The position numbers and the translations under genes were made by a program. The notes beneath the pieces were generated by a model. The model did no database searches. It worked only from the letters and a program-made list of their open reading frames with translations, and was not told the DNA's origin. A DNA stretch of 64,000 bases from Eledone cirrhosa. Taxonomy: Eukaryota. The stretch covers positions 8,990,001-9,054,000 of the forward strand of contig OZ024746.1 in assembly GCA_964016885.1 (NCBI GenBank). The letters run 5' to 3'. This document shows, piece after piece, positions 1,652 through 52,791 of the stretch. Every line of letters starts with the position of its first letter. Position 1 is the first letter of the stretch.

Positions 1652-1873
1652 ATGGAAAACGAAGAATCAGAGATGCATCGGAACACAATTTATTACGTAT
1701 TACAATTGTTTCTCCGACGAACAGCTCGAGGTACGATCTGTTTGTGGATGGAACCTGACTCTGGATTCGCAAGTTCCTCAGATACGTCTAGTGACTTCGA
1801 AAGAGGATTTCGAAAGAGGATTTGCTTCGAAACTAAACGTATGTGAGGAACTTGCGAATCTAGAGTGAGGTTC
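1652..1873. mobile_element. (TA)n-embedded fold-back element (Penelope-like pseudo-LTR / retrozyme-like)
   Basis: Inverted arms 1751-1792 and 1832-1873 (38/42 match), TA tracts on both sides, minus-strand hammerhead motif followed immediately by AATAAA (1689-1694). Confidence 0.75.
1695..1787 (-). ncRNA. Type I hammerhead ribozyme motif
   Basis: ACGTAT-CTGAGGA-[ACTTGCGAAT...GTTCGTCGGA]-GAAA-CAATTG-TA-ATACGT: 6-bp perfect stem I, canonical core, paired stem II base, palindromic stem III ACAATTGT, GUA cleavage triplet. Confidence 0.8.
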
Positions 1874-1960
1874 AATATATATACAGTATATATATATACA
1901 GTATATATATATAATATATATATATATATATATATATATATATATATATATATATATACA

Positions 1961-2215
1961 AATATAAATTTAGCGAGAATCGTATTTCGGCTATTGGAAA
2001 TTAGCGAAAAACAACTTCCGAGATGTGTGGCAAGCGCTCCATAGACGCTAATGGACTAGAGCTACAACATAAGTTAAAAGGCCAAACACACTGAGACGAT
2101 GGTTAAACCATTATCCGCACAGCCATAGAAACGACCAAGTAATTCGGGTCAAACAAATAAAATATGATTGAAAAATTATACTCGGACCCCTGGAAGGTTA
2201 GTAAAATATCCAGCA
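1961..2215. repeat. Unclassified dispersed repeat abutting (TA)n; inverted homologue at ~56820-57070
   Basis: GAGAATCGTATTTCGGC..GAAATTAGCGA..CAACTTCCGA..AAGCGCTC..ACATAAGTT..AAAAGGCCA aligns to the reverse complement of 56880-57070; both copies start at a TA tract. Confidence 0.7.
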
Positions 2216-2592
2216 TTTGGGTTTCTGCAACTCCTAAATCAAGTACTGTCCGCTTAGACAAATAATGTTAAGCTTTTGGTAAGATGATTGAACAAGGAAG
2301 TCACTTTCTCAAGAGGCTTTTAGTTCAAGTGCCAAGTGAAGGACTGACCGTTATCAAAACCCACGTGGGGCTCGACAAGGGGGGCAACCCTTAGTTTTGG
2401 CGGATGAATTCAGTATGTGTGTTATTATTGCAAAATTGCAAAATATCACAAAACGAATTAAGTTCTCAATAGAATGATTTTTAAATTAACAAAAGCTATT
2501 CATCAGTCAATAGAATTAAATAAAAAAAAAAAAAAATATATATATATATAGTTTTGCGAGGTTTATTGATATGAAATCGTGTGTCGAAACAA

Positions 2593-2735
2593 ATATTGTT
2601 ATACTTGGGGAGGGTCATATTTGTGTAATAATATTGCCAGAATTAATAACAGAACACACTCACTGTGAGTGTGTTCTGTTATTAATTCTAGCAATATTAT
2701 TACACAAATATGACCCTCCCCAAGTATAACAATAT
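2593..2735. repeat. Near-perfect fold-back palindrome, 71-bp arms, 1-nt loop
   Basis: 2593-2663 vs 2665-2735 with one mismatch; TA tracts nearby on both sides; related sequence at 55930-56012. Confidence 0.95.
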
Positions 2736-2757
2736 ATATATATATATATATGTATAT

Positions 2758-2978
2758 ATGAAAAGGCAAACAGGATTAACAAAGCAAACGACAGAGTACA
2801 ATGAAGAAATATACTATTAGTTTTACGCTTTATGTAGTAGGAAACGAGTCTTAACGTTTCAACGCTAGTCTTTATCAGAAAATCAGAAATTTGAGAAGAA
2901 ATAGAAAGATAGAGGAAACTGGGCAGTGTGCAGAAACGAAAAAAAAATCTTTATAAAAACTGGTATATTCACGTTGTT
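2758..2978 (-). mobile_element. (TA)n-flanked element with decayed minimal hammerhead; family of 16260-16590 and 38565-38785
   Basis: Minus strand TTTT-CTGATAA-AGACTAGCGTT-GAAA-CG-TT-AAGA; colinear similarity with 38565-38785. Confidence 0.7.
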
Positions 2979-49588: not shown

Positions 49589-50304
49589 TCAACTAGAAAT
49601 TGATTTCATATATATATATTTAAAATAAACACATGAAACAATCACAGGGAATAAATTGTACAGTGTGTAATCACACATAGCTAGGTAGCTAACTAATTAA
49701 AGTTTAACTAGAACTTCAAATATTACCTTTTAAAAATGATTAATCTTCATTGTATATATTTCATTAAAGAAATATATTTCACCAATTAATCCGTAAACTG
49801 ACAGTAGTCAAATCTGAATCTTCAGCAAGGAGAAGATTCAACTATCTGTGTTTACACATCAAATGCAAATCTGCGAATGACCAGTCGCACGTGTTGCATT
49901 TTTAAAATACACACATCGTGCCAGCGTCATCCCAGTGGCGTGAGTAGGGTTATCGACAGCTAGAAATTGCAGCCGAGTCCTTTAAACTGAGTTAGCTCTA
50001 CAATAAAGGGGCCGTGTATATATCAAAAATTTAGTTAAATTAAGGGACTCATGTCCGAAACATGCGCCATATCCACCATAGAATAAGCTCAAAGATTCCA
50101 ATGAATAGATCCGAGTATTTTATATCAACTAGAAATTGATTGACATTATATATATATTAAAAATAAACACATGAAACAATCACTGGGGATAATTTGTACA
50201 GTGTGTAATCACATATAGCTAGGTAGGTAACTAATTAAAGTTTAACTAGAACTTCAAATATTACCTTTTAGACTCCCTTAATTTAACTAAATTTTGGATA
50301 TATA
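49589..50304. mobile_element. Partial-tandem (536-bp period) element with terminal inverted fragment, between TA tracts
   Basis: Direct repeat 49589-49732 / 50125-50270; inverted repeat 50017-50047 / 50274-50304. Confidence 0.85.
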
Positions 50305-50312
50305 TATATATA

Positions 50313-51199
50313 TTTTTTTTTATTTTTTTTATTAAGGCCAAATGGCGTGTTTTGTCACTCTGCTGTTACACCTGCTTCTCACAGAGCCACCAGTCAAGAA
50401 CATATGTTTATGTGTGTAGGTACGTGTGTGTATATATTCCAAATTGCAGGTCAGAATTGTGCAAATATCTGACGTGTTGCTAAGTGGCATTTTTCAAGTA
50501 GTAAATATATTGCATTCATTATCACTTTGAACTCCAGCTAAAACAAACTTACGAGTTGTTGTCTTCCTGTTTCTTCTACAACAACTACAACGGTACACGA
50601 TGGGGCCCACCCACAGCCCCGGCGGACAGAATGGAAAAGGCGTTTCCCTGGAGAACGGCAAAGGAGACGCGCTGGAAAAGCCACTCCAACTCGCGGGGCT
50701 CACACCTGCGGCTGGCCAGCTCAGCGCCTATGGTGGTGAGTAAGGAGGTAGCTCAAGGGCCGAGGACACGAGAGGACTCCACAGCCAGGGGTACGACCGC
50801 AAACCTGTCGGAGAGCGACCGGTATTTGAGGAGTTTGGCCCCCTCAGCCCGACGCGCAGCAGAACCTGGGTCAGTCGCAGACTGCCCCAGGTTGCGGCTG
50901 CAGAAAGTGTCGGTGCAAGTGACATCCCAGACTAGGGGTTTGCCACCGCGGAATGGGAAGATGGTCATGCCATCTGGCCTTTTGCCGTCCCCTCGATCCA
51001 GCCCCACCGGCTCGAGCTGAGAAGGGAAGCCTTCAGCGTCCAAGCCATGCTTAATGACCTCGTTGAGGGCAGCATGGCGTGGAATGCGGCCGGCATTATG
51101 GCGACATTATGGCGACAGGAAAGCGGGTGGAGGCTGAAAGAGTCCACGGTGGGACCGCAGCGACATTGGTGTGACATTGGCAGATCCTAGCCTAAGCAA
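50313..51199 (-). pseudogene. 5'-truncated CRE-clade non-LTR retrotransposon (zinc knuckle plus restriction-like endonuclease), 3' UTR and poly(A)
   Basis: Repaired frame [107 protein letters not shown]; 11-bp duplication (51094-51115) and stop (50753) inactivate it; natural stop 50585; AATAAA/poly(A) at 50313-50333 next to (TA)n. Confidence 0.88.
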
Positions 51200-51910
51200 C
51201 ATTTTTTGGTACTTATAAAATGCGACTCGTCTGTTGATGAAGAGGAAACCGTTTTCTCAGTTCTTAGACGCAGTGACAATCGTGTTGATGTTGTTTCAAA
51301 CTTATATTTGCAATTATTTTCAGCTCGGCACAGAAACAATCTCTCAGAATCAGGGGAATCATATTGAAATTGCATTTTTCCACTGGGTGATTTTTACGTT
51401 CCAAAGCCGCAAACAATTGAAGGTTGTTGTTGTTGTCATGTTCCCGTAGACCCCTTTCAAGTGCCGGAGTGAATCGGAGATCTTGAGGGAGATAGTAAAG
51501 GCCATTGACAACATATAATAAGGCATTTAATGTAATTATGAAAAGTCGCATTGTATTTTGAAAAGATAATTAACATAGAAAAAAAAAACGAAAAATAATT
51601 ACACAATTTTCGCTTTCATGTGGTCGATTATTTATTATTTTTATTATATTTATTTATTTTATTGTTTGCATATTTATTATTTATGAAGCTCAACGTTTCT
51701 TCATCGCTAGGAATAAGTAATTCAGACTGACTCTCGGGACACCTGAAGATCGCCAGAAGTTATTAAAGCAATCTATCCAAATGATTTTATTAATGCTACG
51801 TATTAATAAACCAGTAACCATCGGGTTATTACTACTTATACACACACTCTCTCTCTCACACACACACACACACACACACACACACACACACACATATTTA
51901 TATATATATA

Positions 51911-52075
51911 ACAAAGAAGGTATGGTAAGATACCAGGTGGACCATATCGAACCAGAGTACTCGATACTTAGGGTAGTAGAGTGGGTAATAGGAAAAGGGT
52001 CAGGACCCCGATCTAGTTCAGATCTAGCTATCGAAACGGCCGGAGCTCAGCCGTCGGGGTCCTGACTCTTTTCCT
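51911..52075. mobile_element. Head-to-head TA-flanked element, 12475 family
   Basis: 51911-52010 is the reverse complement of 12539-12636; 52021-52075 is the sense 5' part; overlapping arms TAGGAAAAGGGTCAGGACCCCGA / TCGGGGTCCTGACTCTTTTCCTA. Confidence 0.88.
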
Positions 52076-52216
52076 ATATATATATATATATATATATATT
52101 TTCATCATAATCATCCACGTTTATCGTCTATTTATCCACGCGCTAGCATATATATGTGTGTGTGTGTGTGTGTGTGTGTGTGTGTGTGTGTGTGCGTGTG
52201 TGTGTGTGTGTGTGTG

Positions 52217-52791
52217 CTCTTATAAATTCTGGTAGAGTTGTAGGGGCTCTGTATTGATATTCGGCGTTTCTTTGGCATTTTAAGCCCGGAGGAGCTCACC
52301 CTTCTCCAGGCCTATATGAGACACGTTGGCTGACGGCTTCTAACAGGAACTAAAAGATTGATTCTTTTTAGCTTCCCGTCCCCACGTAAAATTTGTAAAT
52401 CAGTGGCTAGTTGAGAGATAGAGTCCTATCGGGTGCCAGTTGCTAATCGCTTTACCGTCTCGGTTGTCACAAACAGTCATGACCGGCATGGGCTGGTGTT
52501 TGGATTCTGTCGATCGATTGGTTATTGATTAGGCGATACCGGCTGATGAAGCCACATAAGCCGATTGTGCATTGTTGCATAATATATGTAGACAGATGGT
52601 GCAGTGCACCTTACTGCTGCATTAGTGCGGCAGAAACTCGAGTCCAGGAACCTTATAGGCACCCGTTTTACGTGTGTCGTGTTGAGGCAAATAACTTTGT
52701 GTATACTCTGGGTATGTATCTTACATTGCCCATTGAGTGCGCTGAGATACAACCGGTACTGGCATTGATAAATATGCTGGGTCCGTCAAAC
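52217..52791 (+). mobile_element. Microsatellite-flanked non-coding element with hammerhead motif
   Basis: GC-richer insert between (GT)n and (ATT)n(TA)n; 3' 160 bp duplicated at 48975-49141. Confidence 0.7.
52539..52648 (+). ncRNA. Type I hammerhead motif with 83-nt stem II insert
   Basis: CCGG-CTGATGA-[AGCC...GGCA]-GAAA-CTCGAG-TC-CAGG: palindromic stem III ACTCGAGT, GUC triplet, stem I 3/4. Confidence 0.62.

Follow-up and report, generated by a model that had tools for sequence, protein, structure and literature searches.

Seven type I hammerhead ribozymes, termed S1 to S7, reside in a 64,000-nucleotide (nt) stretch of the Eledone cirrhosa genome (contig OZ024746.1 of assembly GCA_964016885.1, positions 8,990,001 to 9,054,000; this whole stretch is called the window), and in each of them a short palindrome occupies helix III. 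These palindromes are quite probably the helix III sequences of families linked to Penelope-like elements (PLEs), kept self-complementary for double-hammerhead pairing of tandem copies. In a tandem transcript, helix III of copy 1 would pair with helix III of copy 2, and the helix I arms would swap. Each core would cut the site of the partner copy, releasing a unit-length RNA that could be circularized. Between lineages, the sequence of the palindrome would drift by compensatory change, with G-U intermediates. Comparison of family sequences offers good support for such pairing, and self-cleavage 3′ of H17 is the activity predicted for these families.

Hammerheads of the window and their families

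All seven strings that the original prediction had assigned to stem III are present at the positions listed below, and all correspond to helix III of type I hammerheads (residues carry the standard hammerhead numbering). On the sense strand, every site (7/7) has the layout 5′ helix I, CUGANGA, helix II, GAA, palindrome string, H17 and 3′ helix I, where each string spans A15.1 to U16.1 between GAA and H17. A descriptor scan of the window found the CUGANGA core intact in S1 to S7. Coordinates and strands are as follows:

S1, 1695-1787, minus strand: core 1775-1781, helix III ACAATTGT at 1702-1709, helix II segment of 62 nt, helix I of 6 base pairs (bp), predicted cut after 1701; the copy is short and truncated, accompanied by an inverted fragment at ~1821-1876, and no linked open reading frame (ORF) was found
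S2, 14522-14568, plus strand: core 14527-14533, helix III ACTAATTAGT at 14553-14562
S3, 20753-20807, minus strand: intact; core 20796-20802, helix III ATATATAT at 20759-20766; 3′ repeat of a Hydra-clade-like PLE
S4, 38654-38689, minus strand: minimal hammerhead of the classic form; core 38679-38685, loopless helix III ACGT at 38659-38662; family located downstream of a GIY-YIG ORF end
S5, 47640-47779, minus strand: core 47763-47769, helix III ACGATCGT at 47651-47658, helix II segment of 101 nt; 3′ repeat of a Hydra-clade-like PLE
S7, 49430-49494, minus strand: intact; core 49480-49486, helix III ATATGTAT at 49439-49446; 3′ repeat of a Hydra-clade-like PLE
S6, 52539-52648, plus strand: core 52543-52549, helix III ACTCGAGT at 52636-52643, helix II segment of 83 nt, helix I broken

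The string at 49439-49446, which reads ATACATAT on the plus strand and ATATGTAT on the minus strand, had been described as near-palindromic. It is indeed not a perfect Watson-Crick palindrome, but as RNA ATATGTAT is fully self-complementary via two G-U pairs, and it is the family form of S7 (33/34 copies). The sites also differ in helix II. A G10.1-C11.1 pair and an unpaired base after A9 are seen in S3 and in most S4 copies, helix II is flanked by a base plus an A in S1, S2, S5 and S6, and an A-U pair takes this position in S7. The S2 copy of the window lacks ~36 nt of its family's 52-nt helix II segment. Long helix II segments lie at 1710-1774, 47659-47762 and 52550-52635; S1, S5 and S6 had appeared as coreless motifs under a helix II limit of 50-60 nt, an artefact that vanished when a longer limit revealed their cores. 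An Rfam scan of the window gave 87 matches at E<=1, nearly all of them to microsatellites or hairpins and none to a hammerhead family.

S1 to S7 belong to seven different high-copy repeat families, for which each search returned 303-2128 first-look candidates (these are not copy numbers). The queries for S1, S2 and S4-S7 ended at GAA, so helix III could not steer the ranking, whereas the S3 query included helix III. Family counts were taken from the best 30 of ~40 scored matches, with the window locus excluded and rows lying within four differences of the window copy. Copies with a helix III that is palindromic by Watson-Crick or G-U pairing made up 23/34 for S1, 39/41 for S2, 25/30 for S4, 27/32 for S5, 23/30 for S6 and 33/34 for S7, and 11/11 for S3 with its helix III-containing query. 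Tabulating stem III across family copies, as had been suggested along with the original prediction, thus identifies the palindrome as the modal form in all seven families (through G-U pairing in S7).

Among the dispersed copies, the inner positions of helix III differ at 33/1168 positions (2.8%), compared with 39/1005 (3.9%) in 3′ helix I. Pair changes are scattered, with one two-sided change versus 38 that are one-sided or breaking. Because the changes are nearly all one-sided and arise at a rate similar to that of 3′ helix I, the dispersed copies look like products of neutral decay, and the palindrome would be a property of the master elements.

Clustering of 336 motifs from 291 loci yielded 40 clusters, and the innermost two pairs are both complementary in 12 of the 13 distinct family helices that have an even length of 6-10 nt. 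The corresponding binomial probability (P ~1.5e-9) assumes independent families and is overstated because the families are related. Two-sided change at the innermost pairs is evident among the 8-mers ACAATTGT, ACGATCGT, ACCATGGT, ACTCGAGT, ATGCGCAT, ATGATCAT and ATATATAT. One 13-nt 'family', ATAACAACCCAAT, arises at the S3 inversion junction; it was excluded from the 13-sequence statistic and is retained in the 22-row matrix described below.

We judged chance occurrence from the inner bases, which are the proper test because the first A and the last T of each string are fixed core bases. Words of the form GAA followed by A..T are palindromic in the window for 93/287 4-mers, 17/364 8-mers and 4/306 10-mers. 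We also scanned 100 evenly spaced 10-kb stretches (L192-L291) from 13 large contigs, 1 Mb in total, using a descriptor that ignored helix III, with one reversed and five locally shuffled versions as controls. This sample holds 97 hammerheads, with helix III palindromic in 52 by Watson-Crick pairing and in 61 when G-U pairs are allowed, while the controls gave 0, 1, 0, 1, 2 and 1 matches (reversed, then shuffled) and no palindromes. The earlier assertion that the palindromes are unlikely by chance thus holds for the 8-mers, the 10-mers and the genome sample, while ACGT alone is weak evidence.

The sample corresponds to ~1 intact-core motif per 10 kb (64-137 per Mb by bootstrap over stretches). 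Extrapolation to the 3.0-Gb genome gives ~190,000-410,000 hammerheads; 11 of the 97 sampled motifs come from one tandem array. The extrapolated figure exceeds the 126,247 hammerheads reported for the whole axolotl genome (PMC7229834), although the descriptors differ. The helix II segment measures 46-150 nt in 27/97 sampled motifs, often with a closing N-A mismatch instead of G10.1-C11.1; such long-helix-II motifs are missed by short-spacer descriptors and go unreported by Rfam. The base preceding GAAA is C in only 29/97. A loopless helix III occurs in 1/97, a count obtained with a descriptor that under-counts motifs with short helix I.

Probable double-hammerhead pairing and rival explanations

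A hairpin loop has a minimum of 3 nt. The innermost pairs of these helices are impossible in one strand because the loops that they would close measure 0 and 2 nt, and their complementarity in 12/13 sequences agrees with the dimeric cleavage originally proposed. The predicted energies point the same way. For the seven types, the helix III hairpin of a monomer is predicted at +1.5 to +4.7 kcal/mol, with S4 not closable at all, whereas the helix III duplexes are predicted at -1.7 to -10.7 kcal/mol. Furthermore, when two copies are co-folded freely, S1 and S3 give a double hammerhead in which the two helix I arms are exchanged and helix III spans 8 bp.

Several observations weigh against this interpretation. 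Free co-folding gives other folds at the remaining 6 of 8 window sites. The statement that most hammerheads carry palindromes is correct for the seven, but it omitted two non-palindromic families in the window (AGAACT at 56076-56081, and one with a 16-nt helix), and the non-palindromic AGAACT/AGGACT helix III accounts for 14/97 motifs of the genome sample, where further exceptions are a 16-nt helix and helices of 9 nt that are mismatched at their centre. A same-strand twin within 1.5 kb accompanies only 19/97 sampled motifs. For S5 and S7, no same-strand twin was seen. A directly oriented upstream family hammerhead was found at 0/20 ORF-bearing loci, and an inverted one at 5, in a small sample of truncated copies. 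Monomer cleavage has been reported for invertebrate retrozymes (PMC7229834). Also, a lizard PLE hammerhead is described as requiring the protein of its element, with cleavage dispensable for insertion in vitro (PMC11167929).

The claim that cleavage needs multimers appears overstated for helices of 8-10 nt, because the monomers of invertebrate retrozymes cleave and an axolotl motif with 2 bp and a tetraloop is reported to reach 22% cleavage as a monomer within 1 h and to cleave more efficiently as a dimer (PMC7229834). A further step would be to regard the 8-10 nt helices as acting mainly as monomers, with 2-3 bp and a tetraloop and perhaps helped by protein, so that the dimer is a facultative booster or a relic. 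The rates given for coral (kobs ~0.8/min) and mussel (~0.1/min) monomers and the description of 2 bp plus tetraloop as a more stable, invertebrate-like helix III (PMC7229834) speak for this alternative, as do the protein-assisted cleavage of the PLE hammerhead (PMC11167929) and the successful amplification of non-palindromic families in this genome. We nevertheless find it unlikely. It leaves the complementarity of the innermost pairs in 12 of 13 different sequences unexplained, S4 cannot close a monomer helix III, and the long helix II segments are unlike the canonical 4-bp helix II, whose loop contact aids monomer cleavage. Least credible of all is an origin of the palindromes in DNA-level or chance features, such as template switching, protein sites or (TA)n background, in place of RNA pairing. 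The genome is rich in microsatellites, ATATATAT is a (TA)n word, and inverted junctions are frequent in these elements. However, GAA and H17 frame the palindrome exactly in every family, GC-rich forms exist, the G-U forms that are kept in 33/34 S7 copies suit RNA and not DNA, and the controls contained no palindromes.

It had also been proposed that the family-specific palindrome could act as a self-recognition code. Under such a code, selection would have driven the palindromes apart, restricting pairing and cleavage in trans to RNAs of one family. At least 12 different self-complementary helices coexist in the genome, hammerheads are dense (~1 per 10 kb), and the ATGCGCAT and ATATGTAT families have 8-9 bp of helix I in common but not their helix III. 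In a matrix of 22 cluster representatives (462 ordered pairs; the clusters are BLAST components, some of them related and one an inversion artefact), helix III is fully compatible in only 22 cross-family pairs. However, 13 of these 22 also match over at least 4 bp of helix I, and helix I alone (at least 4 bp) passes 36/462 pairs, a similar filter; because helix I swaps too, specificity would rest on both helices. Palindromes are common to several families (ACTAGT to 2 clusters, ATAT(A/G)TAT to 5), S3 and S7 cross-pair over 8 bp even though their ORF ends are only 46% identical, and the frequent AGAACT/AGGACT family is non-palindromic. The A/G variation within one cluster (27 ATATGTAT, 10 ATATATAT) fits neutral G-U drift. 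Finally, the AT-rich duplexes reach only -2 to -3 kcal/mol, a weakness that suits pairing in cis better and makes it far likelier than pairing in trans, and no recognition role is needed because tandem partners are identical by descent. The overall pattern fits lineage drift by compensatory change, and a code is improbable.

If the code were real, transposon families would police each other by RNA pairing, and the genome would offer natural orthogonal trans-cleaving ribozyme pairs. Helix III and the swapped helix I could then form a two-part lock that was selected to diverge, by which co-expressed retroelement families avoid or exploit trans cutting, a proposal to which we attach little weight. 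Equally doubtful is its extension to an RNA-level incompatibility system among transposons, which would involve ~2-4 x 10^5 intact-core hammerheads in at least 20 families. The code idea was not found tested in the literature covered, which did not extend to the most relevant experimental paper, by Lunse, Weinberg and Breaker (RNA Biol 14:1499), reportedly on minimal and small-palindrome PLE hammerheads, which may bear on it.

Carrier elements and known systems

The carriers were searched by tblastn with natural ORF pieces that had Pfam RVT_1/GIY-YIG matches or PLE-like Atlas neighbours. The end of a sense PLE ORF lies upstream at 8/29 S4 loci and 9/29 S5 loci (one in each set belongs to another element type), and in a search from further upstream at 11/15 S7 loci and 3/15 S3 loci. 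Judged from these ORFs, the S3, S4, S5 and S7 families end Penelope-like reverse transcriptase (RT)/GIY-YIG elements. The S3, S5 and S7 proteins (L194, L234, L319, L342) carry the Hydra-clade motifs CxCX5C linker, CxxC and CxH around E and N, together with a C-terminal GIY-YIG and no CCHH; the DKT motif occurs in L194 only. By these motifs, as set out in section 11 of PMC8557442, the three carriers are Hydra-clade-like.

For the remaining families, few linked ORFs were seen: a sense ORF lies upstream at 1/29 S1, 1/29 S2 and 0/29 S6 loci, and the search from further upstream gave 0/15 for S1 and one 19-residue match in 15 S6 loci. We infer that S1, S2 and S6 are likely non-coding tandem derivatives of PLEs. 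The S2 family forms tandem units of ~528 nt (spacings 487-529), with a same-strand partner at 8/29 loci. Evidence for tandem arrangement is weak for S6, where an 845-nt unit occurs in 2 loci, and for S1, where same-strand spacings are 719 nt in one locus and 820 in L298. Other same-strand spacings are 533 and 866 for S3 and 626 for S4. In L247, the S2 tandem is followed by an RT/GIY-YIG ORF that inserted separately behind (TA)n, and no link was counted. Locus L241 contains a retrozyme-like tandem array of 11 copies with a 310-nt period, helix III ACGCGT and one hammerhead per unit.

Dimeric pairing of this kind is probably the right reading, but it has already been published for PLE hammerheads. 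Cervera and De la Pena (2014; PMC4209133) described minimal or small-palindrome type I hammerheads in PLE pseudo-long terminal repeats, with many families per genome; there, monomers were inactive and dimers weakly active in vitro, and the palindromic helix III is pointed out there as a feature that the descriptor had not imposed. The consensus in their Fig. S3 reads 'GAAAN Palind NU H', with palindromes of 4, 6, 8 and 10 nt; Aedes aegypti by itself has two distinct ones of 10 nt, and an AGAAA variant is also listed. The dimer model is restated in PMC6765202 and PMC6155905. The hammerheads studied here resemble these metazoan motifs in being type I, with a short helix I, a palindromic helix III and, in S3 and most S4 copies, an unpaired base after CUGANGA, and in forming many families per genome, mostly as solo truncated copies or inverted pairs. 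In contrast to those described in PMC4209133, palindromes of 6-10 nt dominate, loopless forms are rare, helix II is often long, the base preceding GAAA is mostly not C and three linked elements are Hydra-clade-like.

A second likeness is to non-LTR (long terminal repeat) retrozymes, which consist of non-coding units arranged head to tail, every unit with a single type I hammerhead (PMC7229834; bioRxiv 10.64898/2026.07.22.740005). Animal retrozymes are reported to derive from PLEs, with family lengths of up to 972 bp (bioRxiv 10.64898/2026.07.22.740005). The retrozyme-like units of E. cirrhosa are S2 (~528 nt), S6 (845 nt), probably S1, and the 310-nt array in L241, present as mono-, di- and multimers. 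The S1, S2 and S6 units differ in that they exceed the 170-400 nt of PMC7229834 and carry PLE-type and not canonical motifs. The rescue of a weak helix III by tandem pairing recalls newt satellite 2 and avocado sunblotch viroid, each with its double hammerhead (Forster et al. 1988, as related in PMC4209133, PMC6155905 and PMC6765202). Unlike the newt satellite 2 transcript and the viroid, many unrelated families with different palindromes here share one genome.

No new mechanism is revealed by these findings. They extend a published class to a genome with unusually dense hammerheads (~1 intact-core motif per 10 kb), and they supply a natural covariation set for the double-hammerhead model that includes long-helix-II variants on Hydra-clade-like elements unreported by Rfam.

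Partial copies and other features of the window

Additional copies and motifs are as follows:

near 2850-2878, minus strand, and at 16341 and 16526, plus strand: decayed paralogs of S4
12861-12911, minus strand: hammerhead with intact core and a 16-nt helix III (12868-12883) that is not palindromic; the family form is 4 bp with an 8-nt loop
14066-14075, plus strand: upstream half copy of S2 that retains helix III, UH and 3′ helix I but lacks CUGAUGA; head-to-tail, 487 nt before the main S2
20972-21026, plus strand: inverted twin of S3; helix III 21013-21020, with a single change that disrupts helix I
47830-47837, plus strand: helix III of an inverted S5 half copy
48982-48989: helix III of an S6 half copy
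49195-49202, minus strand: helix III ATGCGTAT, decayed copy of the ATGCGCAT family
56071-56110 (upper end approximate), minus strand: decayed, non-palindromic AGAACT-family hammerhead; helix III 56076-56081

S6 and the S3 twin have a broken helix I, and S2 has a shortened helix II; these parts are intact in other family copies. The inverted arms of S3 (20702-20863 and 20916-21077) constitute a PLE-type inverted truncation, in which cis pairing as two sense copies is impossible. The window copies are likely inert, truncated leftovers, because none has a complete same-strand partner.

The family with the 16-nt helix III has a second window copy near 21290. In this family (12861-12911 on the minus strand, L211 and L217), a monomer fold is possible, yet a central CTAG palindrome is kept in the loop. 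The AGAACT/AGGACT family also occurs in L252, L254, L284, L214 and L233, and dimer formation would leave it with tandem A-A or G-A mismatches. A motif at 31623 on the plus strand has the core but neither helix I nor a family match and was excluded.

Ten ORFs of the window match no Pfam family except for one weak match, and in a tblastn search of the window with the PLE ORF probes none of the seven sites could be linked to PLE coding sequence. A short remnant at 53031-53254 on the plus strand resembles the PLE thumb region (46% over 56 amino acids, E 6e-10) and is not tied to S6. In the S6 (52543-52549) and S2 (14527-14533) copies, a short reading frame begins at the ATG within the CTGATGA core and runs through helix II; for a lizard PLE, stem II is reported as the place where the ORF starts (PMC11167929).

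Long near-perfect hairpins at 12698-12796 and 38942-39111 draw sub-threshold microRNA matches, the latter being an inverted duplication that is centred on (TA)n and lies at the 5′ end of S4. A high-copy repeat of ~200 nt, resembling a short interspersed element, is found at 29462-29997, 33722-33915, 56404-56545 and elsewhere, in tandem at 29.5-30 kb and dispersed window-wide. The window also holds a 264-nt direct duplication at 19753-20278 and a 17-nt minisatellite of 18 copies at 36832-37137.

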